Part shown: one piece after another, positions 28,192 through 43,946 of the stretch
How the letters are laid out: each line of letters begins with the position of its first letter
How positions within the stretch are numbered: the first letter of the stretch is position 1
Source of the DNA: Parcubacteria group bacterium
Lineage (GTDB): Bacteria > Patescibacteriota > Minisyncoccia > Moranbacterales > UBA2206
Reading direction: 5' to 3'
Assembly (NCBI GenBank): GCA_041674205.1
Contig: JBAYWF010000004.1
Span: forward strand, 26,721 to 90,720
DNA length: 64,000 bases
Position numbers and translations under genes: made by a program
Notes under the pieces: generated by a model
Database searches by the model: none
What the model was told of the DNA's origin: nothing
What the model saw: only the letters and a program-made list of their open reading frames with translations

Positions 28192-29736
28192 TCAGGCCGC
28201 GGATATTGCCGCACGTATGGCTCTTATTTCTCCCGTCTTCAGATCCAGTTCGACCTCATCCCCGTCCTGCAGAATCCGCGTAGCGTTTTTCGTACCGATG
28301 ATGGCCGGCAAGCCGAGTTCGCGTGAAACGATCGCCGCGTGGCACGCCAAGCCGCCCTCATCGGTGATTATCGCGATGGCTTTTTTCATAAGCGGCACAA
28401 ACTCGATCCTGGTCATGCTGGTCACCAAAATCCTGCCCGCTTCAAAATCACTTTTGTCCGGACGCAGGATTATGCTCACAATCCCTCTGATTTTTTCTTG
28501 GCCGCCCCGGCTGGCTACCACGCCCATCAATCCGCTTGCAGATTCGATCTTGCTTGCCAACCCGAATAAATCCCTGGCCTCATCGCCGAAAAAAATGTTC
28601 CGCTTGCCATGCTCGAATGCCAAGAATACGCCCGACTCCCTTTTTGCGATAATCAACGGATCGACTCGCACGTCCTTTTCCAGCAAATCAAACAATTCTT
28701 CCATAAAATACGCGGTGCAGGTGTGATAATCGATTTTTTTGCGTTCCGTGATTTCCCGCAGCATGGAATAGATGTAATAGAATTGCTTCATCATTCCCGA
28801 TTTCCTTTGATCAAACCACAAAATTGCCTTTTGGGAAAATTCAATATCCATCAAATCAACCTCTCTTAGGGCATAGCGCTTTTTAAGTTCATTTTTACTA
28901 GCATGGATATTTGAGAAATTATCTTCTATTTTAGCCAGTTCATTTTCCAGGTCGGCTTCGTTTTTTATTTTTAATTCATTTTTAACTTCATCCCTCAATG
29001 AATATCCATCTACACGCGTCGCCTCATAAAAATTCGTTTTAATCCAGAAAAAATCCCGTATATATTTATCGACTAGCGGTTGGACATTTTTATCTTCCCA
29101 CGCTTTAGCGAAATCATCATTCCCAGAACTATGGATTTTCCGGTTAACCGTCAGACATATTTCAAAAAAATTCTTTCGTTCCTGATTGAAAACCGCCATC
29201 TCATCCGGATGCGCCAACACGCTCACCGCTTCCCGCGCATCTTCATAGCTGATGCCATGGCGTTTTTGGAATCGCGGCACCACTTCCCAATTGACTACCT
29301 CCGCTTTGTCTTCGCCGGTAGCGGCACATTTCCACCACTCATAGGCCAGCTCGTTTATTTTCCTAAAATATCCAGCGAATTCAGCGTCTGGAATTCCCCC
29401 TTCCGCCCTTTCCAGATATTCCAACCCCAAGCGGTCGATTTCTAGAGCCAATTTTTGTTGGGCTTGGATTTTGTTCCGCATACCCTCCGGGTTTTCCAAA
29501 TAATCTTCGTAAAACTTTTTGGAAACCTTTTTGATATCGTCCCGTGAAATCAATTGGTAGAAAACGTCCGCCCCTTGGCCGAAATAGCAATGCACGTGAT
29601 CATAATCGACTCCGGTGATTTCCGCCGAATCCGAATAGGCCCGGAAAACCCAATCGGCCGCGTTGAAAGCCGCCCGGGCGCTTTGCACGTCGATTTCATT
29701 TTCCGCCAGATATTTTTTCAATTCTTGCGCGTCCAT
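28192..29736 (-). CDS. Phosphotransferase paralog 1: variable N-terminal domain (~400 aa) + C-terminal PEP-utilising-enzyme phosphohistidine swivel domain
   Basis: C-terminus GVVASRGG...[48 protein letters not shown] matches the PEP-utilisers mobile domain. The conserved His codon falls at about 28339-28341. No ATP-grasp or PEP-binding barrel. Confidence 0.7.
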
Positions 29737-29737
29737 A

Positions 29738-31159
29738 TTATTTTATTATTTTTACCAATCCATGATTCGCCTTGACTTCCACCAGCATTCCGTCTTTCAA
29801 AACCTTGGTCGCGATTTTTGTGCCGATGACGGCCGGAATGCCAAGCTCGCGCGCCACGATGGCCGCGTGGCAAGTTATACCACCTTCATCCGTCACAATA
29901 GCGGCAGCTTTACGCAAAGCAGGAATAAATTCAGGACGAGTCATAGAAGAGACCAAAATATCGCCCTCCTCCACTTTGTCTATGGTTTTAATGTCCTTGC
30001 AAATAATCACTCGTCCGATAGCGGTTCCAGCATTGGCAGTCGTGCCGTGTAAATCCATTCCGAAATCATGCTTAGCCGCTTCTTTTTCCTTTTTAATTCT
30101 AGCATACTCCGCATAATCCCCGCCTATGGATTTCTTTTCTCCCTGTTCATCCACAAGAAACAATACGCCCTGGGTCCTTTCCGTCAGCTCGCCTTCCATA
30201 TCCTTCATTTTTCCAATCGTTTCCATTCCCATGACATCATCCACTCCCAGGTAGGATAGCAGATGGCTGGCGACTCCCATCCTTTGCGCCAATTCATCCA
30301 TAATAATGCCTAGATTGCTGATAGCTCTCAAAATATTTTCTTTCCTTTCGTCCTGCCAGACCGTACAAAAATCGATTATTCCGATCATCTCTTTCAGTTC
30401 CGGACCCAAATCCATACTAGGCATATTCTCTTGTTTCGAAGAAATTTCTTTTTTATCAACCATGCTAGCTATCCTTTCCTTGAGCGAAGCAATAGTGATT
30501 TTTTTCGGACCGACATAGCTGTTTTGGATCCAAAAATATCTTTTCAAATGCGCTTCGAGCGCCGCTTCAAATTCCGCGCCTTCCAAGGACATGGTTTTTT
30601 TAAGATCGTTTTCTTCCCTGGCTATGAAAGAGATTTCCGTAGGCGCCGTTATGGCGGCGAAATACTTATTGAAACTTTTTTTATCCTCAAGGGAATCGAA
30701 TAATTTTTCCTTCAATTCTTTCTCCAGTTCCATGCCGATTCCTTCCAGCACATGGGCGATGCCTACGGAATCAGTCATAGCTTCCAAACTTTTTTTGAAA
30801 TGGTCCAAAAGCCCCACGTCGTCCATCAGAGCCACCTCTCCAGCTCCGACGCTATCAAACATCTCCCGATGTTTTTTAAAAATTTCTTCGTACCGGTTTT
30901 TAATCTTAACCAGATAATCATTGTCTTCCCCGATCTTCTTCTTCGCCTGCATCCAAACGTCGGCCAGATCGCTTTGCAAATAGCCGTATTCGCAATAATC
31001 ATCCTGGTAACTGCAAATGAAACCGGAATATCCATATCCCAGATGTTTTTTCATCGGCACCAGGCTTGCGGCGCAAGAGTTCAAAAAAATCGGCACGCCG
31101 TTGAATCCTTGGATATACCAATCCTTTTCCAGTGCCATTTCCAGATCTTTTTTGTCCAT
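29738..31159 (-). CDS. Phosphotransferase paralog 2: variable N-domain + phosphohistidine swivel domain
   Basis: C-terminus GTAIGRVIICKD...ILVSSMTRPEFIPALRKAAAIVTDEGGITCHAAIVARELGIPAVIG. The N-domain shares a YFWIQNSY-type motif with paralog 1 (YFWIKTNFY) but is otherwise divergent. Confidence 0.7.
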   Translation of the reverse strand: MDKKDLEMALEKDWYIQGFNGVPIFLNSCAASLVPMKKHLGYGYSGFICSYQDDYCEYGYLQSDLADVWMQAKKKIGEDNDYLVKIKNRYEEIFKKHREMFDSVGAGEVALMDDVGLLDHFKKSLEAMTDSVGIAHVLEGIGMELEKELKEKLFDSLEDKKSFNKYFAAITAPTEISFIAREENDLKKTMSLEGAEFEAALEAHLKRYFWIQNSYVGPKKITIASLKERIASMVDKKEISSKQENMPSMDLGPELKEMIGIIDFCTVWQDERKENILRAISNLGIIMDELAQRMGVASHLLSYLGVDDVMGMETIGKMKDMEGELTERTQGVLFLVDEQGEKKSIGGDYAEYARIKKEKEAAKHDFGMDLHGTTANAGTAIGRVIICKDIKTIDKVEEGDILVSSMTRPEFIPALRKAAAIVTDEGGITCHAAIVARELGIPAVIGTKIATKVLKDGMLVEVKANHGLVKIIK

Positions 31160-31171
31160 ATGTTTTTTTTA

Positions 31172-31813
31172 TTAAGACTGAAGATTTTTCTCCGCCTCGA
31201 TCAAATCATGCAAACTTCCGATTTCAACATAGCCCTCTTTCGCCCGCAAACCGTCGCCATCATTCAGGATGTGGTATAGGCGGTAGCCGAAATCGCCGGC
31301 TTCTTTTTTGACTTCTTCGGCGGCCTCCGCGAAGTTTCCGCAATTTTTGAGTTTGTCATCGGTATACACGACCGTCCGGAACCCTTCGGCATATTTTTTC
31401 CGCAAATAATCCAGAAGCATCTCTTTGGTTTTCACGTTCGTTTCGGCATAATCGAAAGTCGAGTTTATTTTTTTGAAAAACTTCCGCACATCAAATCCGA
31501 TCCGCGGGGTGAGATATTCCGCCCGCCAGTCGATCTGTTCCGGGTTGCCTTGCGTGAAAACCTCGCTGTGCTGCGCCCATTCCAAAACTTCCTGCGCGCC
31601 CGGCATCAGATCAAGCTTGAAATACCAGCCTTCGCCATAAGGTATTTTATACATTTCTTCCTCTTCCCGCGCGGAAATACCGTCCATTTTTCTGCCAAGT
31701 TCGTTTTCCAGCCAATCATAATAGCCGGCAAATCCGGTTTTCTCCGCGTCCCATTCCTCCCGGAAAATCGTCCCGGCCAGATCCCAAAGATACAATGTTT
31801 TATTATTTTTCAT
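31172..31813 (-). CDS. Hypothetical protein with weak HAD-like features
   Basis: LYLWDLAGTIF resembles a degenerate HAD motif I (second Asp absent). TVVYTDDK is motif-IV-like. Assignment is weak. Confidence 0.3.
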   Translation of the reverse strand: MKNNKTLYLWDLAGTIFREEWDAEKTGFAGYYDWLENELGRKMDGISAREEEEMYKIPYGEGWYFKLDLMPGAQEVLEWAQHSEVFTQGNPEQIDWRAEYLTPRIGFDVRKFFKKINSTFDYAETNVKTKEMLLDYLRKKYAEGFRTVVYTDDKLKNCGNFAEAAEEVKKEAGDFGYRLYHILNDGDGLRAKEGYVEIGSLHDLIEAEKNLQS

Positions 31814-32393
31814 CTATTTCTCTAATTAATTTTTTTATATCTTTAAAAATTATCACTTTCATTCCCGCCAATATGGCGCCTTCCACCCTGTCCGGGCGAT
31901 CATCGACATAGATAGCCTCCCCTCCGGATATCCCGGCTTGGGCGAGAGCATAGTCAAAAATTTCTTTTGCCGGCTTGCGGATATGCAGATCACCCGACAC
32001 CGCGATGATATCGAAAATGCCGTTCCATCCGAAGTTATTGGAAAAATATTCGAACCATTCCTTGGGATTATTGGAAATGACGCCGATTTTATATTTTTTC
32101 TTCAAGGTCCTAATATAATCCACGAGCTCGGTATTTTGAACGAAGCCCCCAAGTACGGATTCCCGTAATCGATTTACATCCAGCCCATTCTTAAAATTCT
32201 TACTTACCTCATCGAAATATTCTTTTTCAGAAATTTTACCCAGCGTAAAATCCTTCCAGTATGGAAAATCGCGCATTGCCGCGTAAAGACTGCCTGGCGC
32301 CAAGGAATTATCCTTTTCATATTCCCTGATTCCGGAGATAAACCCCTCTTTTACCAGGACATTTCCCGAATCAAAAAAAATCGCTTTTATCAT
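31803..32393 (-). CDS. HAD-superfamily hydrolase-fold protein (subfamily IA-like, variant motif I)
   Basis: IFFDSGNVL (motif I, second Asp replaced), IGVISNN (motif II), K...YVDDRPDRVEGAILAGMKVIIF (motifs III/IV). Confidence 0.55.
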   Translation of the reverse strand: MIKAIFFDSGNVLVKEGFISGIREYEKDNSLAPGSLYAAMRDFPYWKDFTLGKISEKEYFDEVSKNFKNGLDVNRLRESVLGGFVQNTELVDYIRTLKKKYKIGVISNNPKEWFEYFSNNFGWNGIFDIIAVSGDLHIRKPAKEIFDYALAQAGISGGEAIYVDDRPDRVEGAILAGMKVIIFKDIKKLIREIDEK

Positions 32394-32399
32394 ATGGTT

Positions 32400-33899
32400 T
32401 TAACTTGTAGCCCGTTCAATGATTTTTATCACGCCTGTTTTGGCATCCACTTCCACTAGATCATTATCATGGATTATCCTCGTGCCGTTTTTCGTATCCA
32501 TCACGCAAGGAACGCCTAGTTCCCTCGATACGATCGCCGCATGCGAAGACAATCCGCCCTGATCGGCTATTATAGCTGCCGCCTTTTCCATCGCCACCAC
32601 GAAATCCGGGGTAGTGAATTGGGCGACCAATATATCGCCCTTGTTTACTTTCGGGATATCCTTTTTGTCCAGGCAAATTTTCGCCCTTCCGCGAATAATC
32701 CCTCCCGAACATGCCACTTTGCCTTTTAGCTCCTCGGATTTTACGACATCGACGAAATAATCTTTTTCCATTTTTTTTATTTCTTCCGGATCGGTAATCA
32801 GCCGCGTCTTTGAATTACGGACGATCATAGCATAATTGGAATGCCTCCGCGCCATTTCTTCCGCATCGGGCAATACCTTGCCTTCCAGGGCGCCAAACAT
32901 TTCCTCATCCGTGATTTCCATGATTTCATCCGGATTGAAATTAGATCTTCGGGCGATTTCGGAATAGAGAAAACTCGCTCCAAAATCAGCATTGAAGAAA
33001 GCTTCTACGCGCCTATTGCGCAAATATGAATGATGTTTGGCCTTTCTGATTATTTCCAGAAAGTCAGGCTTAGGTTTTATCTTATCCAGCGCCGCTTCAT
33101 AGTCCGCCTCCACTTTTTCTTCCGAAGCGTTATAGTCCATCTCGTCCAATTTCATTCCATCGTCCACCTGTTTTTTTATTTCTTTCAAGCGATTGATTAT
33201 GTCCTCAAAAGAATAGGGCCGGCTAGTAGCCAATCCCCTGTTTATATAGGCGTATTTATCCAGATGATCATCGATAATATTCCTAGCCTCAGCCGATAAT
33301 CCATCCAGATCCTCCATTTTTTCAAAAAAATCCTTCGCAATCGCCAATAGAGCTATCCTTTCCTGGCTCACTTCGGTCGCTTTTTCCGGATCGGTAAACG
33401 TCAGCACTAGGTTCCTGAATCCAGAATCGCTAGAAGGGATGTATTCCGCCAAATTGTTCTCAATCGCGTTCTCAAAATACTCATCCAGTGGATATTGCGC
33501 ATACCAGGCGCCGACCAGACTCCTATATTTATTCAATATATCAGCCAAGGATTCCTTCAACTCAGAATTGTCTTTTTCTTTCCAATTGATTTTTTTAAGT
33601 TCTAATCCTTTTTTATACAGATTCTCGCATTCTTCCAATTCTCTTTGGCAATACCGCTCAAACCAACCATCATTAGCCTTAAGATGATCAATCACTTCTT
33701 TTTCGAAACTGTTATATTCCGACGCCTCCCAATACATCATATGGTTCAAGAATGTGCGGTTGCAAAGCACGGTTTTAATTTCGACTTTGCTAGCATCCTC
33801 CTTGTTAAAAGCAGAATTTATCATAAAACGCAAGAAAATCGGAAGTTTTCCCGAAGGTTTGATCCTCCATTTCCCCGAATGCATGACCGCTGATGACAT
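32400..33899 (-). CDS. Phosphotransferase paralog 3: variable N-domain + phosphohistidine swivel domain
   Basis: C-terminus KGKVACSGGIIRGRAKI...[46 protein letters not shown]. Confidence 0.7.
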   Translation of the reverse strand: MSSAVMHSGKWRIKPSGKLPIFLRFMINSAFNKEDASKVEIKTVLCNRTFLNHMMYWEASEYNSFEKEVIDHLKANDGWFERYCQRELEECENLYKKGLELKKINWKEKDNSELKESLADILNKYRSLVGAWYAQYPLDEYFENAIENNLAEYIPSSDSGFRNLVLTFTDPEKATEVSQERIALLAIAKDFFEKMEDLDGLSAEARNIIDDHLDKYAYINRGLATSRPYSFEDIINRLKEIKKQVDDGMKLDEMDYNASEEKVEADYEAALDKIKPKPDFLEIIRKAKHHSYLRNRRVEAFFNADFGASFLYSEIARRSNFNPDEIMEITDEEMFGALEGKVLPDAEEMARRHSNYAMIVRNSKTRLITDPEEIKKMEKDYFVDVVKSEELKGKVACSGGIIRGRAKICLDKKDIPKVNKGDILVAQFTTPDFVVAMEKAAAIIADQGGLSSHAAIVSRELGVPCVMDTKNGTRIIHDNDLVEVDAKTGVIKIIERATS

Positions 33900-33917
33900 A
33901 TGATTGTAATTAAAAGA

Positions 33918-34868
33918 TTATTTTGCTGATTCTTTAGAATTTTTCCATTCCTTATACTTGCCCACCAATGCCAGAAATTTATTTTTGTCGATAAAAACTT
34001 TGCTTTCCGCCGGTCGGCTGCCACCCTCGAACCTGACCGGTATTTTATCCGGCAGATCGTTCGGATTTTTGATATCCAAATAGATCGATTCGTTGGTATC
34101 GATAAAACCGCCAAAGTCCTCGTTTTCAAAATCGGAAATCGGTCCTTCCTGGCCATCCGCTCCCAGCATAACGCCCGCCTTCTTCAACAAGGCCTCCATG
34201 AACATGCCATGCGTAACAGTATTCAATACGGCATCCTTTTTAACATTGGAATCATCCCCACCCCGGTATCGCCTATCATATCTTCCCGCTATTTCAAATT
34301 CGTGATTCAATTGTTGCGCTAACCCCATAGCCATCCGGGTTATCACCTCATCGTTTTCTTCCCTTAGGATATATCTGAATCCGACCGCTTGGTTTTTGGC
34401 CCGGATCGGTGCGATTTTTTCTTGGTCGGGCAATTTCGTAAGGTCGACTTTCAATTTTCCATTTTCATCCCTTTCAGTCGACTCGCCTAATTCCCGCAGG
34501 GTTTCTTCATTGATCAAATCAGCAGCTTTCCCTAGCTGTTTTTTCAAATCCGGATTCAATATCCCATATTGGATATCCTCGACTTTGCGCGTAGCATATT
34601 GCTTCCCGGTCAATTCCGACTTGATGCCGCTTTTTTCAGAAATGAGATCGCCAGTAATAAAAGCTCGGTCGCTTTTTTCATCACTGGCATAGGCCTTCAG
34701 CACCTCGGCCTCTTCTCCGATTTGCCCGCCCTTCCCACTTGCGTTTTCAATGCCCTCGGGAGAAAGTTCACCTGAAGCCAGCCTTTCCGCGTGCCTTGTG
34801 ATCATAAAGACATATGTGGGTTCTTTTTCAAATGTTACTTCTTTAGGGCCGCCTTCCTTGAAACTCAT
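33918..34868 (-). CDS. Histidine-phosphatase-superfamily protein (phosphoglycerate-mutase-like branch)
   Basis: VFMITRHAERL gives the RHG-type catalytic motif (R-H-A-E). Confidence 0.5.
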   Translation of the reverse strand: MSFKEGGPKEVTFEKEPTYVFMITRHAERLASGELSPEGIENASGKGGQIGEEAEVLKAYASDEKSDRAFITGDLISEKSGIKSELTGKQYATRKVEDIQYGILNPDLKKQLGKAADLINEETLRELGESTERDENGKLKVDLTKLPDQEKIAPIRAKNQAVGFRYILREENDEVITRMAMGLAQQLNHEFEIAGRYDRRYRGGDDSNVKKDAVLNTVTHGMFMEALLKKAGVMLGADGQEGPISDFENEDFGGFIDTNESIYLDIKNPNDLPDKIPVRFEGGSRPAESKVFIDKNKFLALVGKYKEWKNSKESAK

Positions 34869-34902
34869 AAATTTATTCTTAAATATTTATGTTTTTATTA
34901 TA

Positions 34903-36381
34903 TCACGATTTATTCAATATTCTCACGATCCCCATATCCGCATCCACTTCCACCAAGTCCCCGTCATGCAAAATCTGCGTCGCAATTTTGGTGCCGATGA
35001 TGCAAGGGATTTTCAGCTCACGGGAAATTATCGCAGCATGCGAAGTTATACCACCCTCGTCAGTTATTATAGCTGAAGCTTTTTTCATAAGCGACACGAA
35101 TTCCGGCCGGGTCATGCCAGTTACCAATATTTCGTTTTTCAAAAAATAATTTCTTTGCGCCCGATAGCTATGTATAACTCGCACTCTGCCTTGCACCTTT
35201 CCAGGTGATCCAACACTCCCCTTAATAATATTTCCTCCATATTTTTCTAAGGATTGTTGTTGTAAATAATAATCATTGATCTGTTTTTTAACGTCTTCGT
35301 GCTTTCCGATATTTTCTATCATTTTACCACCCTTATCTATAAATACCGAATATTCAGGAAAACGCGCTTGTACTATGTGGCTTATGGAAGAAATATATTC
35401 AGATCCTTTCAAGACTTCATGAAAATGAGTATACGGAATATATTTTTCTCCTACAGCACACTGAGCGAATATTTTTTGCGCAAATCTATATGTAACAGTT
35501 GTAAAGCGAGCCATAGAATCCTTCCTTACATCTCTTAATTTCATAATTGCTTGTATATATTCAACGAGTTTTATTTCTTCCGAGGAAAGAGTCCTGATCC
35601 ACCGCGCATATTCTTGTCGCCTTTCTTTTTCAGCATCAATATCCCGCCTAAGGATATCGTCGATTTGGGCTAATGAAAAATCACCGAAATCTTTTTTTAA
35701 ATTTGACGCGACTTCTGACGCGGATTTGATATGGTCATAATGGGCTTCAAAAAACTGGCATTTTTCCCCTATTTTCTCCCAAGAACAACCTTCCTTTATC
35801 ATATTGATAAGTATATGTCTCCTTCTGATATCAAACGAATGGGAAACGGGCCATGTCGCATTCTCCCAAAGGGATCGCACCCTATCCGGATTTATATCGC
35901 TTTTCACTTGTTTGAGAAATCCCAGACACATCCGCTCATCAAATGCGATGGAAAAAAATAGCGCTGCGTTCATATCCCATACCGCGTCTCTTATGGCAAT
36001 CACATCGTCTTTGATTTCAGACTCCTGCTTCAACGCGATGTAATGATATGTGAGTTTTTCATAAATTTCCGATATCTTATCATCAAGCCTATGAAAAATT
36101 TTAAATCGTTGATCCAATATGTCCTGGCCTTTCCAATGTCTCAGAAAAATTTCCTCGGAATGCCGTTGCGCCTGCGAAAAATGATAGTAATAAATACCCT
36201 CTTTAGAATTCATCGTGACAACAAGCGGGAATGACAAATCATCATCATAATACTTTTTAAAGTATTTTCTAGTATTCCATCCGCTTGACTGGACAATCAT
36301 AGCGCCATTGTATAAGGCCGGAGAAATTTCCTCATTTCGTGACGCCCGCGTAAATAATTGTGCCACACCATATGTTTCCAT
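34903..36381 (-). CDS. Phosphotransferase paralog 4: variable N-domain + phosphohistidine swivel domain
   Basis: C-terminus GSVGSPGKVQGRVRVI...[72 protein letters not shown]. Confidence 0.7.
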   Translation of the reverse strand: METYGVAQLFTRASRNEEISPALYNGAMIVQSSGWNTRKYFKKYYDDDLSFPLVVTMNSKEGIYYYHFSQAQRHSEEIFLRHWKGQDILDQRFKIFHRLDDKISEIYEKLTYHYIALKQESEIKDDVIAIRDAVWDMNAALFFSIAFDERMCLGFLKQVKSDINPDRVRSLWENATWPVSHSFDIRRRHILINMIKEGCSWEKIGEKCQFFEAHYDHIKSASEVASNLKKDFGDFSLAQIDDILRRDIDAEKERRQEYARWIRTLSSEEIKLVEYIQAIMKLRDVRKDSMARFTTVTYRFAQKIFAQCAVGEKYIPYTHFHEVLKGSEYISSISHIVQARFPEYSVFIDKGGKMIENIGKHEDVKKQINDYYLQQQSLEKYGGNIIKGSVGSPGKVQGRVRVIHSYRAQRNYFLKNEILVTGMTRPEFVSLMKKASAIITDEGGITSHAAIISRELKIPCIIGTKIATQILHDGDLVEVDADMGIVRILNKS

Positions 36382-36394
36382 ATTGAATATGATA

Positions 36395-37882
36395 TCACGA
36401 ATTTATTTTTAATATTCGAACTGTCCCGCGATCCGCATCCACCTCCACCAAATCCCCGTCGTGCAAAATTTGCGTCGCGATTTTGGTGCCGATGATACAA
36501 GGTTTTTTCATTTCTCGAGCGACGATAGCCGCGTGGCAAGTGACACCGCCTTCGTCTGTCACAAAAGCAGAAGCTTTACGCATAGCCGGAAGATAACTAG
36601 GCTTGGTCATATGCGCGATCAAAATATCCCCTGCCTTCACTTTCATCAAATCTTGCTCGTTGTTTAAAACTTTTACTGCGCCCCTTGCGATCCCATGCGA
36701 GGCCACCACTCCCATAATTTCAGTTTTCACATCTCTAACCAAAGATTTCTTGCCAATTTCCCGCCCGATTATTTTCTCCGCTTCCGTGCCGACATGATAA
36801 TTCTCCTTGCCGTCACACATCCACATAAATGTTCCATCCCTATGGGATACTTCCCTAAAATCAAAATTTTTACCGCCCACCAAGTCCTTGTATTCAGAAA
36901 ATTTCATAAAATACCGCGCCTCTTTTGGAACATCAAATCTCCTAATCACCTCCTTGAATAAAATATTTATATACTGATGGGATCTAGTATATATGCCATC
37001 CCTATATTCCTTTAAATAAATAATTTTTCTCAATGCGGAAAATAAATCATGATGCCTCTTATCAATATTCAATTTATTTTCTATGTCTTTTATATTTTTC
37101 GCGATTTCTTTCTTTCCAGGAAGAGTGGACAATCCCTTTTCCGATAAATCCTTTAATCTCGGAATAAAATCCCCCGGCTCCATTATGGGCCCAAGAAATT
37201 GATAACCCAATGACTGCCAACCGAATTTCTCCGCATGCTTCTTTAATGCCAACGACGCTTTGGTTCCTGAAATAGATTCCCCCTTTCTGATCATTTTCAC
37301 GATCTTCCAAAGATTTTCATCACTTAATCTGGCCCAAGACTTTCCCGGATTGTAGGCAAGCTTAGAAAAATATTCTCCGAGTTTATTTTCTTCGCCCGCG
37401 TCTTTTAATTTTGATTTCAAATACGGGATTACTTCATCCTCAATGGCAAAGGTGGCGATTACCGGAATATATGTATATATGGCTAAATTTTCATAGGCTT
37501 TTTCAAAATCACTCAAATATTTCAAAAGTTCCTTATCACCTTTACTAGAAAAGTCGATTTTAGAAAATTTTTTGCTATACGCTATCAGGTTTCGGCCATT
37601 TTTAAAATGATATTTTTCCAGTCTGTCTAAAAAATTCGTTTCTTTTTTTATTTCTCTCAAGAAAAATTTGGCAAAATTATCCAAATCCTGTTGTTTCCAA
37701 TATATGGATATTTTATCGCCCTCCCATAAATAAATATGTCCGAGATAGGTTTTGGCAAATTTCTTAAATGCCGGATGGAAAGGATGCGCGCTATCCCGCA
37801 AGTTGCAATATGAAACCGCAATTCCCTCCCGCTCCGTCCAAAGCCACCATTTGGATTTATTTTTAGATCTGGTTTTCTCCAT
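36395..37882 (-). CDS. Phosphotransferase paralog 5: variable N-domain + phosphohistidine swivel domain
   Basis: C-terminus GVVASHGIARGAVKVL...ILIAHMTKPSYLPAMRKASAFVTDEGGVTCHAAIVAREMKKPCIIGTKIATQILHDGDLVEVDADRGTVRIL. Confidence 0.7.
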   Translation of the reverse strand: MEKTRSKNKSKWWLWTEREGIAVSYCNLRDSAHPFHPAFKKFAKTYLGHIYLWEGDKISIYWKQQDLDNFAKFFLREIKKETNFLDRLEKYHFKNGRNLIAYSKKFSKIDFSSKGDKELLKYLSDFEKAYENLAIYTYIPVIATFAIEDEVIPYLKSKLKDAGEENKLGEYFSKLAYNPGKSWARLSDENLWKIVKMIRKGESISGTKASLALKKHAEKFGWQSLGYQFLGPIMEPGDFIPRLKDLSEKGLSTLPGKKEIAKNIKDIENKLNIDKRHHDLFSALRKIIYLKEYRDGIYTRSHQYINILFKEVIRRFDVPKEARYFMKFSEYKDLVGGKNFDFREVSHRDGTFMWMCDGKENYHVGTEAEKIIGREIGKKSLVRDVKTEIMGVVASHGIARGAVKVLNNEQDLMKVKAGDILIAHMTKPSYLPAMRKASAFVTDEGGVTCHAAIVAREMKKPCIIGTKIATQILHDGDLVEVDADRGTVRILKINS

Positions 37883-37896
37883 AATTTATAAAATCT

Positions 37897-38991
37897 TTAT
37901 TCCTCGCTCGCTCTCTTTAAAATTTTAACCACCCCCTTATCCGCGTCCACTTCCACTTCATCACCCGTTTTGAATGAGAGCGTCGCGTTAACCGTATTTA
38001 CGATACAGGGGATATTAAGCTCCCGCGACACGACTGCCGCATGGGAAAGCATTCCTCCGGTATTCGTAACGATCGCTGCCGCTTTTTTACATAACAATAG
38101 GACCTCCGGGCTGGTAGTCTCCGCTATTAGAATATCTCCCTTTTTCATTATTTTATCAATCTCCATAATCTGCTTATGATTATCGAACATCGGAACCACT
38201 ACAGCTTTTCCCGAAACCATCCCCCTGCTCGCGCTAACGCCTTTAACAATTTTCCTATTCACCCTTTCAGCAAATCGATCAAAAATATTTTTGGCTTCTT
38301 GATATGGGAATACCGCCAGCTTTCCCTTATGGTTTGTAGCCGCATAACATTTTTCTCTTCGTTCATAATCTTTTGGCGGCATATGTCCGTCAAAAAGCCC
38401 TCTTATCTCATCGGTGTAAAGATACTCGGCTTTCACGTCGTATTTCCTGGAAAAATATTTATAAATATTTTCCAAGACACCGCCCCTGAAATAATAGTCG
38501 TTCATAATTTCCCGGACTTCGAATTTAAATCTACCAGCATAATCCAAGTTTTTCTTTATGACCTTATTATCGTTCTTTTGAGCCACGGCATATGCATATT
38601 CTTGGAAATAGGCTTCTAAAAATCCATATCTTTTCCATAATAATCCCATGAAGTTTCTTGCATCAATGAATTCTTCTTTGGTTAAATTTTCGGGAACTTT
38701 TTTAAAATCTTTAATTATCCCTGACTTCGCTTCTCGTATATATTCCTTATATTCCTCAATATATCCATTAAATTCTTCCTGATTTCCATATAGCTCCAAC
38801 CCTTGTTCCGCCCAATCTTTTTCATGTCGACGGCTTATATATGAATAAAATACCATATTTTGGTTCATGACAAGCATATCTTGTCCCAGTGGACCCTCCA
38901 GAAGAAATTCACTATGCATACATCCGATAAGCCCGTCTGTACGGAAATATTTAATGAAATCTTCCGGATTCAATTGGTTTGGGTTTATCAT
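37897..38991 (-). CDS. Phosphotransferase paralog 6 (short N-domain, ~260 aa) + phosphohistidine swivel domain
   Basis: C-terminus GVSASRGMVSGKAVVV...ILIAETTSPEVLLLCKKAAAIVTNTGGMLSHAAVVSRELNIPCIVN. Confidence 0.65.
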   Translation of the reverse strand: MINPNQLNPEDFIKYFRTDGLIGCMHSEFLLEGPLGQDMLVMNQNMVFYSYISRRHEKDWAEQGLELYGNQEEFNGYIEEYKEYIREAKSGIIKDFKKVPENLTKEEFIDARNFMGLLWKRYGFLEAYFQEYAYAVAQKNDNKVIKKNLDYAGRFKFEVREIMNDYYFRGGVLENIYKYFSRKYDVKAEYLYTDEIRGLFDGHMPPKDYERREKCYAATNHKGKLAVFPYQEAKNIFDRFAERVNRKIVKGVSASRGMVSGKAVVVPMFDNHKQIMEIDKIMKKGDILIAETTSPEVLLLCKKAAAIVTNTGGMLSHAAVVSRELNIPCIVNTVNATLSFKTGDEVEVDADKGVVKILKRASEE

Positions 38992-39005
38992 ATATTTATT
39001 TACAG

Positions 39006-39830
39006 TTAATCATTCAATTCCACTTTCTCGCCCCTTCTCGCTATGGCGATGCTATTTTCTGAGACGTCGATTTTTATAGCTTCACAATTCTTAATTTCAT
39101 GATCGCCAAAATATTCATTTAAAGCATAGGCTATATAATTTTCATGTCCGAATGCCATAACTTTTATATTTTTCCCAGACCCGCTCTCCTTGATTTTATC
39201 ATGACCAAACCTTATCAACCTTAACAAATTTTTAAAATTGACATCAAACGTATCTTTAGCTGATTTTATTTCAGGGAAAAATTTTTTTAATTCTTCCGAG
39301 TAGTGAAAAAAATTAGCCCCCCAATTCCCATAATTTTTATTTTCTACAATTTTTCGAGCTTCCTCCCATTTCTTCCTGGCTTCAGCTGGAACTTTTTCCC
39401 AGTCTACATCCACGGACCGTGTCGGCATAAAAAGATATTGGACAAGAACATTGTCTATGCGCAATGACAAGTTTTTTATCTTCCTTATTCTCCCCTCACT
39501 AACTTCGTCTGAATACGCGCTTCTTGAACGTTTAGGACATACTATTTCGAAGCCTTTTCTTTCAGCAACCTTCATATATATGCTGGCCGTATCCATCGCT
39601 CTCACTTGCCCGCTAGACACAAAGAATAATCCATCATCATCGGGGTTAAATTCCGATAATAATTTTTCTGCCTCTTGCTCCGCCAAAATAATTCCTTCTT
39701 TTGATAAATCATTCTTTTCTTGCTCGCTTTCCTCAATAGGGCCCTGAGGATTATCAGAATCTAATATTTTTTTATAACTCTTATATTCTGAAATGCTATG
39801 GCGCACACCGTAAATTTCACTTTTTTCCAT
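39006..39830 (-). CDS. Histidine-phosphatase-superfamily protein
   Basis: IYGVRHSISEY (RHG-type motif) and MAFGHENYI (second catalytic His region). Confidence 0.5.
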   Translation of the reverse strand: MEKSEIYGVRHSISEYKSYKKILDSDNPQGPIEESEQEKNDLSKEGIILAEQEAEKLLSEFNPDDDGLFFVSSGQVRAMDTASIYMKVAERKGFEIVCPKRSRSAYSDEVSEGRIRKIKNLSLRIDNVLVQYLFMPTRSVDVDWEKVPAEARKKWEEARKIVENKNYGNWGANFFHYSEELKKFFPEIKSAKDTFDVNFKNLLRLIRFGHDKIKESGSGKNIKVMAFGHENYIAYALNEYFGDHEIKNCEAIKIDVSENSIAIARRGEKVELND

Positions 39831-39834
39831 AAAT

Positions 39835-40047
39835 TTATTTGTCTTCCGATTTTTTAATTATCCTCACAATCCCCTTATCCGCATCCACTTCCACCAGATC
39901 CCCGTCACGCAAAACTTGGGTGGCGATTTTGGTGCCGACGATACAAGGGATTTTGAATTCCCGCGCCAGCATCGAGGCGTGGCAAAGCATTCCGTCCTCA
40001 TCGGTCACGATCGCTTTTACTTTTTTCTTAAAATATAAATGGGCCAA
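39835..40047 (-). pseudogene. Orphan 3-prime fragment of a phosphohistidine-swivel-domain gene (C-terminal ~60 residues only)
   Basis: Encodes ...KAIVTDEDGMLCHASMLAREFKIPCIVGTKIATQVLRDGDLVEVDADKGIVRII behind a short non-homologous leader. Overlaps the 3-prime end of the methyltransferase paralog at 40017-40838 by about 30 nt. Confidence 0.6.
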
Positions 40048-40838
40048 TATCTGGGATCGAAGTATTTATCGGTTATGTATTTAACGTCTTCAATCAGATA
40101 ATATTTATTAAAAATATTTTCCAAATTGTCCCTTAGCGGCAATCTGATTTTCAGGCTGCTCGGTTTAATAAATCCAAGCATCGTCTTAAGTTCCGAATCA
40201 TCAATAATCCGTTTTCCGCGCATATCGCGCAACTTCGATAATATTCCGGACGGCGTATAGGATCCTTTTTTCCGCCCTATTGAAAGCGCCAGGTCCGGGT
40301 AAGCCATCATAAAAAGCGTTTTTTTGCCCGTCTTGATTCGCAGTTTCCTGTATCTTTCAAACCCATCAGCCGGATTGACTTCTTTGCGTACCGGACGTAT
40401 TACCGCGGTAGTCGCGAATATCCCGCCCGGCTTCAAATTGTCGGCAATATTTTTTACAAAAAAGCTTTGTTTATTTATCGGGATCATATTGATAACGTTA
40501 TGGCCCATTATCAAATCAAATCCACGCGCATCATCCAGCTCAAGCCAATCAGACTCAATGAATAATTCTTTTCCATCCCTTTTCATCAAAATCCTCAGCG
40601 CCTCATACACCTCCGAATTCACATCACAACAAATCGGCGTTATTTTATGCTTCAAAAGCAAATCACGGAATTCCGGCGTCGACCCCAAAATTAAAATCCT
40701 CGGCTTCTTATTACCTGCAAGAACCTTTCTGATGATTTTTTCGTATATAGCCATTTCCAACCCTGGCCTGACGGGCGCGGCATAATTTTTCCAATCTTTT
40801 GCCAATTGTTTGTTCCAAGGAAGTTTTTTTTCAGTCAT
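40017..40838 (-). CDS. Methyltransferase-fold paralog 7 (same family as the 8.6-14.1 kb array)
   Basis: VRPGLEMAIY, ILILGSTPEFRDL, ICCDVNSEV, FDLIMGH, LKPGGIFATTAV. Confidence 0.5.
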   Translation of the reverse strand: MTEKKLPWNKQLAKDWKNYAAPVRPGLEMAIYEKIIRKVLAGNKKPRILILGSTPEFRDLLLKHKITPICCDVNSEVYEALRILMKRDGKELFIESDWLELDDARGFDLIMGHNVINMIPINKQSFFVKNIADNLKPGGIFATTAVIRPVRKEVNPADGFERYRKLRIKTGKKTLFMMAYPDLALSIGRKKGSYTPSGILSKLRDMRGKRIIDDSELKTMLGFIKPSSLKIRLPLRDNLENIFNKYYLIEDVKYITDKYFDPRYWPIYILRKK

Positions 40839-40857
40839 ATCTATATATAACTAATTA

Positions 40858-40900
40858 TTTCGCGCCCACCTCCGCCAGATCCCCATTCTGCAAAAAATCG
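40858..40900 (-). repeat. Remnant of the conserved 3-prime terminus of a swivel-domain gene (...LQNGDLAEVGAK*), immediately downstream of the GGCT-like gene
   Basis: cgcgcccacctccgccagatccccattctgcaaaaaatcgc parallels the 3-prime ends of paralogs 4/5 (cgcatccacctccaccaaatccccgtcgtgcaaaatttgcg). Confidence 0.5.
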
Positions 40901-40903
40901 CAT

Positions 40904-41446
40904 TCAATCAATCTGGTGCTTCCTCCTATATTCTTCATAATCTCTTGCCGCGACTTTCAAAATAGCATCTTTCGGGACTAAATAATCTTCATAATCCCCA
41001 TTTTCAATCACCCTATCCGCCGGCATATCCGGCGATAATGACCCGTGCGTGATAATATTGACGATTTTTCCTTCTGAATCCATCGCAATGGCTTTGATAT
41101 CTTCCTGCATACCATATTCCAGCAATTCCCAATCCCTAACCAATCCATATTCTTCTTCTGTCAGTTTCCAAATCGTACCATAAGTGACGGCGTTAACTTT
41201 TGGCCTGATAATATATAACTCAAAATTATCATCAAAAGCCTTGGAAACGATTTCGCGCGGAGAAAGCCTGGATGGCGCCGTCCCAATTATTTCTCCCGGT
41301 ATATCATCGATTTTTTGGACACACAGCTCAAAGCCCAGTAATTTTCCCTTAACGCCTTCGATTTTTTCACGGCCAACCATAGCAGACATCATCTCCAAAT
41401 CGCGATTAGTGCCATAGCCGAAATAATCCAATAGTTGCTTCTTCAT
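40904..41446 (-). CDS. Gamma-glutamyl cyclotransferase-like (GGCT/AIG2/BtrG fold) protein
   Basis: N-terminal YFGYGTNRD matches the YFAYGSN signature of the GGCT fold. Confidence 0.5.
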   Translation of the reverse strand: MKKQLLDYFGYGTNRDLEMMSAMVGREKIEGVKGKLLGFELCVQKIDDIPGEIIGTAPSRLSPREIVSKAFDDNFELYIIRPKVNAVTYGTIWKLTEEEYGLVRDWELLEYGMQEDIKAIAMDSEGKIVNIITHGSLSPDMPADRVIENGDYEDYLVPKDAILKVAARDYEEYRRKHQID

Positions 41447-41465
41447 AGCGTTTGTTTTGATTTAA

Positions 41466-42344
41466 TTAATTCAAACTTAATTCTTTGCCTTGTATTTCAC
41501 AGGATGCCTTGCCGCGCTTATCGATTCCGATGGAAATGCCAGCGCCTTGATCGACTGGCAAATATTTTTTCATGTCTATCCCGGCAATATGCCTTTTGAT
41601 AAAAGGGCTTATGGAATCATAATGGCTTACCGCCCAGATGATTAATCGCCTGTCAGGATTAGCCTTGTGATATTCATCAGCTATCTGCGCCTGTAATGAA
41701 AGCGCGTAATTAACCCGGTCAGCTATTCCATCCGGACCTTCCGCACCCATCTCTACACGAGTCTCCCTTTCCGAATCTGATTCATACGCATCCCAAAATT
41801 CCACCCCGGTTCCATATTTATCTATCAAAAATTGCGTAAATTCTGGTGACTCTTCCAATATCATCAAGTCCCTCAGTTCTGAAACTTCAATAGCTCCGCC
41901 GTTTTGAGCGGCTGAATTATTCAACAATTGTCCATCCGCAATAAAAAATTCCGACATAGATTCCCTGAGCCCCGTCATTACCTGACCGGCAGTTTCCACC
42001 GCCCTCTGATGCTTATTTTTTATTCCATCGGGAGTGGACAATGTCGAATCGCTGGCAATCACCATCACATCGATCATTTTTCTCTCTTCCTCATTTAAAC
42101 CGCCAAATATCTTATTGAAAAATTCCTTGGCGTTCACTCGCACTTGTTCTGCCGCGCCAACTTCAAGCGCACCCATATCTGGCGAGTCTTTGCGCCTATC
42201 GTCTTTGGCGTTGCGCTGCAAAACGATTGTCGAGCCGCCGATTTCAGGCATTTTTGGATGGAGATCTGCCGATGTGATTCTTTCTATTTCAACCTTCCCG
42301 CCTTCGTTATGAAAAATTTGATTCGGCCATTCATTCATAAACAA
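41466..42344 (-). CDS. Hypothetical protein, possibly a degenerate histidine-phosphatase-like fold
   Basis: RLIIWAVSHYDSISP resembles the second-His region of histidine phosphatases, but the RHG motif is not evident (IVLQRNAKD). Confidence 0.3.
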   Translation of the reverse strand: MFMNEWPNQIFHNEGGKVEIERITSADLHPKMPEIGGSTIVLQRNAKDDRRKDSPDMGALEVGAAEQVRVNAKEFFNKIFGGLNEEERKMIDVMVIASDSTLSTPDGIKNKHQRAVETAGQVMTGLRESMSEFFIADGQLLNNSAAQNGGAIEVSELRDLMILEESPEFTQFLIDKYGTGVEFWDAYESDSERETRVEMGAEGPDGIADRVNYALSLQAQIADEYHKANPDRRLIIWAVSHYDSISPFIKRHIAGIDMKKYLPVDQGAGISIGIDKRGKASCEIQGKELSLN

Positions 42345-42353
42345 TTTAATTTT

Positions 42354-42893
42354 TTATTTATTAATATCCTTAGCCAGATAATCCGCCGCCTCTTCTATGG
42401 AATCAAAAATAGGCACTCCTTTCTCTTTCCATTTTGAAATCCAATTCCTGTGTCCCATAACCTGCCCTAGCCGATCAGAAGTCGCCCCGCCATCATAGTT
42501 CGTTTCTTCTCTCTTTTTGATAAATGATTTATGCTTCTCCCATTCGGGCACGACTACCGCATCCGGCCTAAGCCAATTATTAGAAGCGCCCATAATCCAC
42601 AAACCTTTTTCTATGGCCCGCTTTGTCACTTCATCACTTCGCCTATCGATTTCATCCATCACATCTTCGCTTTCCAGCCACCATGCCCTTTTCGGATGAG
42701 CGCCTGATTTTTCCCATAATTTATCGCCATCGATCCAATTTTTGTCCTTTTGCCTATCTACAAAATATGTTTTACCGGCACCGGATGGAGCAACGATAAA
42801 AAGCCCTGACTTGTGCCTGACGAATTCTTTTAAAAACAGCTCTATCGCCTCAGCAATCTGAGAATCATCCAATGGCTCCAGATCATATACCAT
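42354..42893 (-). CDS. P-loop kinase/NTPase (small-molecule or nucleotide kinase-like). The ORF track extends it to 42974 through an upstream swivel-domain remnant
   Basis: Walker A LFIVAPSGAGKTYFV. Probable start MVYDLEPLDD at 42893. The upstream in-frame codons (MQDGSLVEVDAGVVI) are homologous to swivel-domain C-termini. Confidence 0.5.
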   Translation of the reverse strand: MVYDLEPLDDSQIAEAIELFLKEFVRHKSGLFIVAPSGAGKTYFVDRQKDKNWIDGDKLWEKSGAHPKRAWWLESEDVMDEIDRRSDEVTKRAIEKGLWIMGASNNWLRPDAVVVPEWEKHKSFIKKREETNYDGGATSDRLGQVMGHRNWISKWKEKGVPIFDSIEEAADYLAKDINK

Positions 42894-42924
42894 ATTTTTT
42901 AATATTAAAATGTTACGCTTTTTT

Positions 42925-42975
42925 AATATTATCACAACTCCCGCATCCACTTCCACTAGACTCCCATCCTGCAAA
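42925..42975 (-). repeat. Remnant of the conserved 3-prime terminus of a swivel-domain gene (QDGSLVEVDAGVVI), in frame with the P-loop kinase ORF
   Basis: caactcccgcatccacttccactagactcccatcctgcaaaac parallels the paralog 3-prime ends. Confidence 0.5.
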
Positions 42976-42998
42976 ACCTAAATGAATAATCCTAATCC

Positions 42999-43946
42999 CT
43001 AATTTTTCAAAGTCGTAATCGGCCGGCTTTGGACGATGTGAAATTTTCCACTTTCATAAGCCCACTCGATATCGCACGGAAAACCGTAATGTTTTTCGAT
43101 ACCCAAGATTATTTCCGACAATTCCAAAATTTGTTTTTCCGCCAGGACTTGCGCGGACGCTTGCGGCTCGGGAATATTTTTCCATTCGTTGCCGCCGTTT
43201 TGCGCCCGATAGATCCCGCGTTCCTGCGTGGAAACGTTGATGTCTAAAATATTCCTCGGATTTTTTTCCACCACATAACTGTCCGGGGTGATTTGGCCGG
43301 ACACGATCGCTTCGCCGAGGCCATAGCCGGCTTCGATGATGAGTTGATTGCGATCTTCCGTCACCGGGTGCACCGAAAAAGCGATGCCGGAAATCTCGCT
43401 TTCCACCATTTTTTGCACCACCACCGCCACGGAAATTTTTTGTTTATGCAGGTTTTTTTCAAAACGGTAAAAAATCGCGCGCGGTGTGAATAGCGACGCC
43501 CAACAATGCTGGACTTTTTCCAATAAATTATCCTTGGTCGTGTTCAAATAGGAATCCAATTGCCCCGCCCAAGCGTTTTCCGCGCCGTCCTCCGCCGTCG
43601 CACTGGACCGGACAGCCACGAATTCAGCATTCAATTCGGTAAATCTTTTTTTAATTTCTTGCGCGATATCTTCCGGCATCTGCGCCTTTTTAATCAAAGT
43701 CTGGATCTTTTCCGAAGCCTCTTCGACCGTGTGCATCGCATTGTGATCGACAGTATGTAAAACCGCATCCACCTCGACGCCCAAATCGGTTTCCGCTAGA
43801 AATTTCTCGAAAGTCCCGGCCAGAACCACGAAGCCAGGCGGCACCGGGATGCCGGCCTGCGTCATCTCGCCGAGAGACGCTCCTTTGCCTCCGGCGATAT
43901 CGGTATCGCTTTTTGATAAATTTTGAAAAATTCTAATCAGTTCCAT
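42999..43946 (-). CDS. Stand-alone PEP-synthase/pyruvate-phosphate-dikinase N-terminal ATP-grasp (nucleotide-binding) domain protein, ~315 aa
   Basis: IAGGKGASLGEMTQAGIPVPPGFVV near the N-terminus. VAVRSSATAEDGAENAWAGQLDSYLN, AVVVQKMVESEISGIAF and C-terminal CDIEWAYE...HIVQSRPITT match the PPDK_N / rifampin-phosphotransferase ATP-binding domain. No swivel or substrate domain follows. Confidence 0.75.
   Translation of the reverse strand: MELIRIFQNLSKSDTDIAGGKGASLGEMTQAGIPVPPGFVVLAGTFEKFLAETDLGVEVDAVLHTVDHNAMHTVEEASEKIQTLIKKAQMPEDIAQEIKKRFTELNAEFVAVRSSATAEDGAENAWAGQLDSYLNTTKDNLLEKVQHCWASLFTPRAIFYRFEKNLHKQKISVAVVVQKMVESEISGIAFSVHPVTEDRNQLIIEAGYGLGEAIVSGQITPDSYVVEKNPRNILDINVSTQERGIYRAQNGGNEWKNIPEPQASAQVLAEKQILELSEIILGIEKHYGFPCDIEWAYESGKFHIVQSRPITTLKN

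Follow-up and report, generated by a model that had tools for sequence, protein, structure and literature searches.

The closest described relatives of the locus treated here are the two-component dikinases PpsAB(C), CreHI and HpeHI, for which phosphate transfer in trans to a separate histidine-bearing subunit has been shown (PMC12167813; for phenylphosphate synthase, PMC6114531). In phenylphosphate synthase the histidine lies on a 70-kDa alpha subunit and receives a diphosphoryl group from the 40-kDa beta subunit (PMC6114531). HpeHI, characterised in 2025, consists of HpeI, an ATP-grasp protein like that of rifampin phosphotransferase (RPH), and HpeH, which joins a rifampin-binding-like domain to the swivel; the histidine of HpeH is essential and no stable complex was formed. 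CreHI is a characterised two-component dikinase with the same split, and HpeH, CreH and PpsA share about 45% pairwise identity among themselves (PMC12167813). Since PpsAB and HpeHI have been characterised, trans charging can be taken, by analogy, as established chemistry for RPH-like split dikinases. A preliminary description of the DNA studied here had taken it that, in the characterised enzymes of the fold, the domains are joined in a single polypeptide, a premise which these three systems contradict. In the present study, we analysed a 64,000-nucleotide stretch (the window; positions 26,721 to 90,720 of contig JBAYWF010000004.1) from a Parcubacteria group bacterium, in which one stand-alone ATP-grasp gene and six genes for swivel modules lie together in an island at 28192-43946. 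We interpret this island as a multiplexed two-component RPH-type dikinase for small molecules, to which we assign a probability of roughly 0.62.

Related genes of the Candidate Phyla Radiation (CPR) and of DPANN archaea carry labels such as 'PEP-utilizing enzyme' (PEP, phosphoenolpyruvate), 'PEP synthase', 'phenylphosphate synthase' and 'rph', and such labels have led to conclusions on phenol degradation or rifamycin resistance that the domain content does not support. One DPANN study took genes of the family for phenylphosphate synthase while remarking on the absence of the carboxylase (PMC8091004), and a CPR resistome survey counted 'rph' matches (PMC8651080); both readings look like annotation transfer from the shared swivel and ATP-grasp domains. 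Our searches of the literature on these enzymes in CPR, Patescibacteria and DPANN yielded no account of one-to-many arrays or of how abundant they are in CPR/DPANN.

Results

The six swivel modules and the ATP-grasp gene

In the island, all substantial open reading frames (ORFs) of the ORF list lie on the minus strand. Below, S1 to S6 denote the modules (N-domain plus swivel), AG the stand-alone ATP-grasp gene, and L-numbers the related loci. For comparison, 80 related CPR/DPANN loci were used, in which ORFs were called and searched with the window proteins, including 10 kb on either side. The main features are as follows.

28192-29736, minus strand: S1 module (PF00391 E 2e-22; 84% amino-acid identity to L081; N-domain orthologs in L011 (Woesearchaeota), L054 and L039)
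29738-31159, minus strand: S2 module (PF00391 E 3e-25; 75% amino-acid identity to L081; N-domain orthologs in L008, L016, L007 and L057)
32400-33899, minus strand: S3 module, the most conserved of the six (PF00391 E 2e-24; 96% amino-acid identity to L081)
34903-36381, minus strand: S4 module (PF00391 E 2e-24; N-domain orthologs in L048, within a 4768-aa ORF, and in L040, L075 and L006)
36395-37882, minus strand: S5 module, RPH-type substrate domain plus swivel
37897-38991, minus strand: S6, short-type module with a 254-aa N-domain plus swivel (PF00391 E 1e-24)
42999-43946, minus strand: AG, stand-alone ATP-grasp (PPDK_N) subunit of 315 aa (PF01326 E 3e-99, residues 16-314, no other domain)

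The six swivel genes reported earlier were all recovered as ORFs. Each has a single C-terminal swivel domain that covers the full 72-position PF00391 model (E 2e-22 to 3e-27), and the catalytic histidine motif GGxxxH is intact in all six; the sequences of the histidine region are TDEGGITCHAAIVARELGIPA in S2, TDEGGITSHAAIISRELKIPC in S4, TDEGGVTCHAAIVAREMKKPC in S5 and TNTGGMLSHAAVVSRELNIPC in S6. The longer consensus given before, TDEGG-x-x-(C/S)HAA-I/V-x-REL-x-x-P, is approximate for S3, S5 and S6; S3 carries alanine at the T/S position of T/SxxGGxxxH. In agreement with the earlier account, no PPDK_N or PEP-utilizers_C match was obtained in S1-S6 at E<=0.01 (Pfam), and no island protein contains a PEP/pyruvate TIM barrel as judged by the Pfam model PEP-utilizers_C. 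An ATP-grasp fold hidden in the N-domains was ruled out by Pfam together with the predicted structure of S5. The swivel domains are 44-62% identical among the six modules, whereas their N-domains share at most 23% identity, mostly with non-significant BLAST E-values. Such conserved swivels on diverged N-domains may be the signature of a shared partner.

The gene AG was found to be what had been proposed, namely a PPDK_N ATP-grasp domain only, of the length of the RPH ATP domain: the isolated ATP-binding domain of RPH (5hv6) can be aligned with it over the full length (E 2e-65). Its best sequence match in the PDB is an archaeal PEP synthase (8a8e, E 1e-75); the 387-aa chain 9goj is a more distant match than either PEP synthase or RPH. 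AG reaches 322 bits with the NCBIfam model PEP_synth (cut-off 739.75) and 291 bits with RIF_Ptrans_rph (cut-off 999 bits), to which the modules score at most 73 bits. The ortholog in L081 has the same length and is 89% identical. A broken gene fragment was considered and rejected, given the same-length orthologs and the recurrence of stand-alone ATP-grasp genes in 17 loci. No second ATP-grasp was detected in a six-frame scan of the whole window.

N-domains of the RPH type

The preliminary description had assigned a different N-terminal domain to each gene; we found instead that all six are versions of a single RPH-type domain that have diverged from one another, not six unrelated domains, on the evidence of structure for S5 and of profiles for the others. 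NCBIfam models of the RPH/PigC/PRK06241 families reach well upstream of the swivel in S3, S4 and S5, so that residues 258-491 of S5 align with RPH 637-864, residues 193-497 of S3 with NF004881 578-893, and residues 249-488 of S4 with PigC 637-881. The AlphaFold model of S5, built with 52 homologs, has a predicted local distance difference test (pLDDT) score of 92.1 and a predicted template modelling (pTM) score of 0.89. In the comparison with the RPH rifampin-binding domain by structure search, which had been suggested beforehand, this model matches RPH across the substrate and swivel domains, and its other PDB matches cover only the swivel of about 100 residues. Identity to RPH is 15-18%. No carbohydrate-binding module was detected, and nothing points to rifamycin as a substrate. 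In S6, alignment with the long-module profile starts only at residue 173 (hhalign E 7e-38); this short class also occurs in other arrays.

The diversity of these domains is large. When the 326 N-domains available (320 from 79 loci and the six of the window) were grouped at >=40% identity, 273 clusters resulted. A search with the S5 N-domain alone among 1.84 billion representatives reached only 337 clusters, of which five had E<=1e-30, and a protein 100% identical to S5 bears the NCBI name 'PEP-utilizing enzyme'. Type-specific orthologs of S1-S5 are scattered sporadically over both CPR and DPANN genomes. That the modules are a viral feature was considered and rejected: viral contigs gave swivel matches only (residues 354-491), mostly in giant-virus bins, and contain no N-domain relatives.

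Recurrence of the layout in related loci

A scan of species-representative genomes gave 78 loci, most of them in metagenome-assembled genomes (MAGs) of CPR/DPANN and a few under other Third Party Annotation labels (Gammaproteobacteria, Methanosarcinales). Among 8000 candidates examined, 4130 proteins belong to the family at E<=1e-5; the named ones come from Patescibacteria/CPR and DPANN, the DPANN hosts being Woesearchaeota, Nanoarchaeota and Pacearchaeota. In the data seen, the family appears very large, hyper-diverse and confined to CPR bacteria and DPANN archaea.

Tandem arrays are the usual arrangement in the 80 loci, where swivel-only ORFs average 3.8 per locus; 43 loci have at least three, and the maximum is 17 (L003, within 22 kb). 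Of the 224 pairs of neighbouring genes in the arrays, 222 share the same strand; the median spacing is 7 nt, and overlaps of 4 nt are frequent. GGxxxH is retained in 294 of the 298 modules of at least 300 aa. In the co-occurrence survey that had been called for, one stand-alone ATP-grasp ORF was seen beside the arrays in 17/80 loci, at the start, in the middle or at the end of the array, and the complete ORFs of this kind are mostly 289-329 aa long. Fusion of the ATP-grasp to modules was seen in 11 loci, one ATP-grasp being joined with 2-10 modules per ORF. The largest single ORFs are listed below.

L048 (Nanoarchaeota), 5024-19330: 4768 aa, one ATP-grasp and ten modules
L064 (Parcubacteria), 221-10312: 3363 aa, one ATP-grasp and seven modules
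L063, 6647-16645: >3333 aa, seven modules, no ATP-grasp seen within the ORF
L037, 4455-11576: 2374 aa, five modules followed by a C-terminal ATP-grasp
L075, 3323-8323: 1667 aa, one ATP-grasp and three modules

The ORFs of L048 and L064 were confirmed, and every module in them keeps TxxGGxxxHAAI. A smaller fusion (P0010, L002 7025-9364, 779 aa) is an ortholog of S5 (49% identity), with the module at residues 1-492 and the ATP-grasp at 495-778; its ATP-grasp follows the swivel, the reverse of the RPH order, and its genomic context looks archaeal. Furthermore, dozens of relatives of 550-860 aa are di-modules. Across the fusions the ATP-grasp stands at the N- or the C-terminal end, and ratios of ATP-grasp to modules in the other loci range from 1:2 to 1:10 or more. 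The fusions link one ATP-grasp functionally to many modules, and the domain order is unconstrained, as expected if charging works like an intermolecular encounter.

A TrwB/VirD4-like type IV secretion coupling protein (about 676 aa) adjoins module arrays in four loci, including L014 (7737-9767), which hints that some arrays lie on or near mobile or secretion-related regions.

Selection and divergence

The ratio of nonsynonymous to synonymous substitution rates (dN/dS) was calculated against the Moranbacteria locus L081, which is about 86% identical. Values of 0.07 for AG, 0.07 for S3, 0.12 for S2, 0.13 for S1, 0.11 for X316, 0.09 for X213 and 0.33 for MT273 were obtained (the last three are accessory genes described below), and flanking housekeeping genes gave 0.03-0.06. 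These values argue that the island genes are working genes under purifying selection, not debris; recent pseudogene fragments of a ppsA-like gene are contradicted by dN/dS and by the intact ORFs. The dS values along the island are uneven, with 0.18 for MT273, 0.28 for S3, 0.29 for the HAD gene, 0.55 for X316, 0.65 for S1, 0.95 for AG, 1.05 for X213 and 1.23 for S2, and this spread of 0.18-1.23 suggests a mosaic history by recombination or transfer.

Swivel relics and cassette turnover

In addition to the six intact modules, the island contains three relics of swivel genes.

39838-40065, minus strand: truncated seventh module, the last 63 aa of a swivel (TDEDGMLCH..., with GG changed to DG; hmmsearch E 4e-29, swivel positions 44-106)
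40860-40896, minus strand: short swivel 3'-end relic, LQNGDLAEVGAK*, a D2 repeat 73% identical to the reference copy
42915-42977, minus strand: swivel C-terminus relic, the last 20 aa, VLQDGSLVEVDAGVVIILKK (weak profile match, E 0.6, positions 84-105)

The repeat family D2 (37 nt, eight copies in the island) is formed by the conserved swivel-coding 3' end. The relic at 42915-42977 contains a D2 copy that is 84% identical to the reference copy; it stands in frame behind AG after two TAG stops, at the AG-proximal edge of a segment that is missing in close relatives. The relic at 40860-40896 marks the other edge of this cassette and is orthologous to a relic between AG and a methyltransferase-like gene in relatives including L081. 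The relic at 39838-40065 has neither N-domain nor start codon and is the remnant of an ortholog of SW506 of L081, to whose 3' end it is 80% identical in nucleotides.

Close relatives of the island lie in Moranbacteria MAGs. Two of the close relatives, L081 and L164, have AG and four modules in the order AG, methyltransferase-like gene, one module (SW506/504), X316, S3, HAD, X213, S2, S1, rplI and pyrG, and the window differs from them by two segments. The first (43005-40860, with X206, X292 and X180) is absent from the relatives; it is bracketed in the window by the swivel 3'-end relics 42941-42977 and 40860-40896, and homology with L081 resumes at 40859. In the second, the body of SW506 is gone with its last 63 codons kept (39838-40065), then X274, S6, S5 and S4 follow, and homology with the relatives resumes within the swivel 3' end of S4, so that both junctions fall inside swivel 3' ends. 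Because of these junctions, and because the first segment is flanked by relics, we infer that recombination at the conserved swivel-coding 3' end is probably a route by which modules are gained and lost.

Accessory genes

The genes interleaved with the modules had been described as a toolkit for phospho-modification and dephosphorylation; of that proposal, one histidine phosphatase and one HAD hydrolase found support, and the P-loop kinase and GGCT-like protein did not.

31172-31813, minus strand: X213, DLAGT motif, possibly HAD-like (no Pfam match; 85% identical ortholog in L081)
31803-32393, minus strand: HAD196, HAD-superfamily hydrolase (HAD_2 E 4e-16, Hydrolase E 1e-14; homologs in 13 other loci)
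33918-34868, minus strand: X316, histidine-phosphatase superfamily with intact catalytic core (AlphaFold2 pLDDT 91.6)
39006-39830, minus strand: X274, possible histidine-phosphatase-like protein with RHS...GHEN motifs (weak: His_Phos_1 E 0.087, hhalign E 0.14)
40017-40838, minus strand: MT273, methyltransferase-fold paralog (87% identical ortholog in L081)
40904-41446, minus strand: X180, N-terminal YGTN motif, same inserted cassette as X206 (no Pfam match at E<=0.01)
41466-42344, minus strand: X292, same inserted cassette as X206 (no Pfam or NCBIfam match)
42354-42893, minus strand: X206, Walker A protein, APSGAGKT (weak AAA matches, E about 0.04; absent from L081 and L164)

For X316, Foldseek gave 113 PDB matches at E<=0.001; the top ones listed are all histidine phosphatases or mutases, led by acid phosphatases, TIGAR and BPGM (E about 1e-6). 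Residues R25, H26, R29, R68 and H220 are invariant in 36 homologs. X316 has the histidine-phosphatase fold and catalytic core in its structural model, and its activity is predicted. The other gene to which the same family had been assigned, X274, is weakly supported by its two E-values; its ortholog (42% identical) stands directly upstream of an S6-like module in L032. The HAD call was borne out for 31803-32393 and drew no Pfam match for 31172-31813. The triad X316-S3-HAD is conserved in L081, L082, L083 and L164, and in L061 these three gene types occur in another order, an S3 N-domain ortholog (435 bits) lying beside a gene for a HAD protein and one resembling X316. Elsewhere, further His_Phos_1-like and HAD genes are found repeatedly within arrays.

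The Walker A motif of X206 is present, and its reading as a kinase was not upheld by the weak AAA matches; the GGCT-like reading of X180 found no Pfam support. Matches of MT273 to Methyltransf_12/25/11 (E 2e-4 to 9e-3) lie below the Pfam cut-offs, and its methyltransferase fold is backed by 30-37% identity to six methyltransferase-like genes at 8647-14064. MT273 also matches PADLOC mad2 weakly (E 2e-6), and four MT273-like genes each stand beside the arrays in L017 and L050. The PADLOC defence models gave no match for S1, S3, S5, S6, AG, X206, X292, X180 and X274. Alignment of X274 and X292 with the X316 family by hhalign was not significant, and in a jackhmmer search of the accessory proteins against the locus ORFs only the HAD and methyltransferase-like families gained matches. 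An Rfam scan of the window found no RNA family. In a promoter/terminator scan of the island, the counts (40 against 38 expected; 19 against 15) were no different from those of shuffled sequence, and no operon boundary can be claimed from them.

Genomic surroundings

Directly upstream of the island, an envelope-glycan cluster at 44137-58581 encodes an S41/CtpB-like protease, LytR-CpsA-Psr, GT4, Wzy_C, GT4, UDP-glucose dehydrogenase, GT2, GT4, a DUF6541 membrane protein and GT4; L081 and L164 have it in the same position beside the island, most other loci do not. A second paralog array (7177-14064, plus strand) begins with a Cys/Met pyridoxal-phosphate-enzyme gene at 7177-8625, followed by six tandem S-adenosylmethionine (SAM)-methyltransferase-like genes of 284-299 aa with 26-40% mutual identity.

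8647-9504, plus strand: SAM-methyltransferase-like gene
9506-10405, plus strand: SAM-methyltransferase-like gene
10425-11291, plus strand: SAM-methyltransferase-like gene
11377-12261, plus strand: SAM-methyltransferase-like gene
12263-13117, plus strand: SAM-methyltransferase-like gene
13192-14064, plus strand: SAM-methyltransferase-like gene

The cumulative GC skew of the window peaks at about 18 kb; around this point (about 17000-19500) gene orientation turns from plus to minus and the GC and AT skews change sign. This switch could mark a replication terminus or origin region, or could be a strand-composition effect of gene orientation.

Discussion

The unbundled architecture proposed for the island, with one ATP-grasp gene and many intact modules, has been borne out by the recurrence of the layout in 17/80 loci, by the fusions and by purifying selection. 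In our interpretation, AG would be the shared ATP-dependent charger of the swivel histidines, and S1-S6 would each provide a swivel together with its substrate domain. Modelled on RPH, PpsAB and HpeHI, the cycle that we infer is one in which AG would bind ATP, dock transiently to the swivel of any module and phosphorylate its histidine; the charged swivel would then swing back onto its own N-domain and hand the phosphate to the bound acceptor, most likely a small molecule through one of its hydroxyl groups, while AMP and Pi are released. The substrate would differ from module to module. X316 and HAD, which travel with S3, and X274, a possible phosphatase that travels with S6, may act downstream of the modules in a phosphatase or mutase step. 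Phosphate charging in trans, as put forward in the preliminary description, is the mechanism best favoured by the comparative evidence, that is, the 17 loci, the fusions, and the conserved swivels as against the diverged N-domains. As to the role, our guess is that an organism living off others would use such a system for the modification, capture or detoxification of many small molecules.

Several points weigh against this interpretation. The support for unbundled trans charging is comparative, not biochemical. An ATP-grasp is lacking within 10 kb in 52 of the 80 loci, and a full-length PpsA, PPDK or RPH elsewhere in the genome, of which 64 kb were seen, could also charge the modules. In the 4768-aa fusion, one ATP-grasp cannot obviously reach ten swivels in cis. 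Furthermore, the modules do not appear to be close sequence relatives of the characterised phenol-type kinases: NCBIfam models of the PRK08296 type (about 600 aa, no ATP-grasp) match only the swivel part of S1-S6, and most accessory genes of the island are not conserved in other arrays.

A wider reading, which we offer tentatively and think rather less likely to be right than wrong, is that the island would belong to a hub-and-spoke system typical of the CPR/DPANN lineages. One charger would serve an exchangeable library of hundreds of modules, the swivel 3' end would be the site at which cassettes are swapped, also between bacteria and archaea, and genome-poor symbionts would thereby phosphorylate, and so trap, activate or neutralise, shifting small molecules derived from hosts or neighbours.

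It has also to be considered that the same phosphorelay might act on macromolecular or envelope-precursor acceptors, phosphorylating glycopolymers of the cell surface or the lipid- or nucleotide-linked precursors of these, and so create a variable surface chemistry, in the manner of the plant alpha-glucan water dikinase. Glucan water dikinase phosphorylates a polymer, the island abuts the LytR-CpsA-Psr, S41 protease and GT4/Wzy_C/UGDH/GT2 glycan cluster (44.1-58.6 kb), this neighbourhood is found also in L081 and L164, and methyltransferase-like paralog arrays lie near the island. We regard envelope acceptors as improbable, however, since glycan genes flank arrays in few other loci (GT4 in 2, S41 in 4), and the fold of the N-domain corresponds to the domain that forms the small-molecule pocket in RPH, with no carbohydrate-binding module detected.

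Somewhat more doubtful is the idea that the modules are activating or condensing enzymes like PigC and RedH in which phosphorylation would activate a carbonyl or hydroxyl group for coupling, and that the arrays and megaproteins form a natural-product assembly line, which the multi-module single ORFs do resemble. NCBIfam PigC/RedH models match residues 249-488 of S4 (E 1e-25) and AG (E 2e-72), but all these scores fall well short of the family cut-offs (about 90 bits against 1300), and the island contains no other biosynthetic genes. In addition, genomes differ in the order and content of their modules (273 clusters for the 326 N-domains), which argues against a fixed pathway.

The modules might also act mainly without an ATP-grasp, by phosphate exchange or by charging from another donor protein encoded elsewhere, a proposal to which we give slightly less credit again. 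HpeH by itself can take the phosphate of 4-phosphoacetophenone and transfer it to acetovanillone (PMC12167813), PpsA alpha likewise suffices for the exchange of phenol and phenylphosphate (PMC6114531), and the 52 loci without a nearby ATP-grasp would be readily accommodated. Set against this are the ATP-grasp genes that lie within arrays or border them in 17 loci, their fusion to modules in 11, and the strong purifying selection on AG. Finally, that the genes are decaying, nonfunctional fragments of former full-length PpsA/RPH-like genes can be practically dismissed: the three swivel relics do show that decay occurs in the island, but this reading is already contradicted by six complete ORFs with intact catalytic motifs, dN/dS of 0.07-0.13, same-length orthologs in relatives, stand-alone ATP-grasp genes in 17 loci and the confident S5 model.

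CPR and DPANN genomes are about 1 Mb in size and are thought to have shed most of their metabolism. Even so, many of them devote 10-20 kb to modules, in tandem arrays or in single giant genes. If one charger indeed serves many modules, the dikinase swivel mechanism would have its first one-to-many version here, and with it a compact route to the phosphorylation of many compounds, and the system may hold a key to what symbionts take from their hosts, or defend against in them. Should the hub-and-spoke reading be true, CPR/DPANN would possess a major functional system that has gone unrecognised.

Among the known systems, the prodigiosin ligases PigC and RedH belong to the same RPH-like family and give sub-threshold matches to AG and S4; unlike the island genes, they are single polypeptides with condensing chemistry. 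PEP synthase and PPDK have ATP-grasp and swivel domains homologous to those of the island, but their TIM barrel is missing here and the substrate domain is of a different fold. The PEP-dependent phosphotransferase system (PTS; Enzyme I to HPr to many Enzyme II) offers a functional analogy only, in that one charger feeds many acceptors through phospho-histidine. The swivel of its Enzyme I is homologous to the module swivels; the PTS is, however, driven by PEP, shuttled by HPr and coupled to transport, whereas in the island ATP would be the donor, each module has its own swivel and there are no transporters. RPH itself (5hv1, 5fbs) would share the chemistry from ATP through histidine to substrate, but RPH carries the ATP-grasp, substrate domain and swivel in one polypeptide, and in the island these domains are on separate genes.

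Closest are the two-component dikinases HpeHI (Rhodococcus), CreHI (Corynebacterium) and PpsAB(C) (Thauera), with the same split into an ATP-grasp subunit and a subunit of RPH-like domain plus swivel. As in the island, the swivel carries T/SxxGGxxxH, the two genes are adjacent and the pathways include phosphatase-family partners. They act on phenolic substrates in the catabolic clusters of free-living bacteria with a carboxylase downstream, whereas the island has no carboxylase and the hosts are CPR/DPANN symbionts. Moreover, they are 1:1 pairs, in contrast to one ATP-grasp with six intact modules and three relics in the island, and, unlike them, related loci contain single-ORF fusions with up to ten modules. 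Split two-component dikinases are thus known, and what looks new is the one-to-many layout and its scale in the ultra-small CPR/DPANN.

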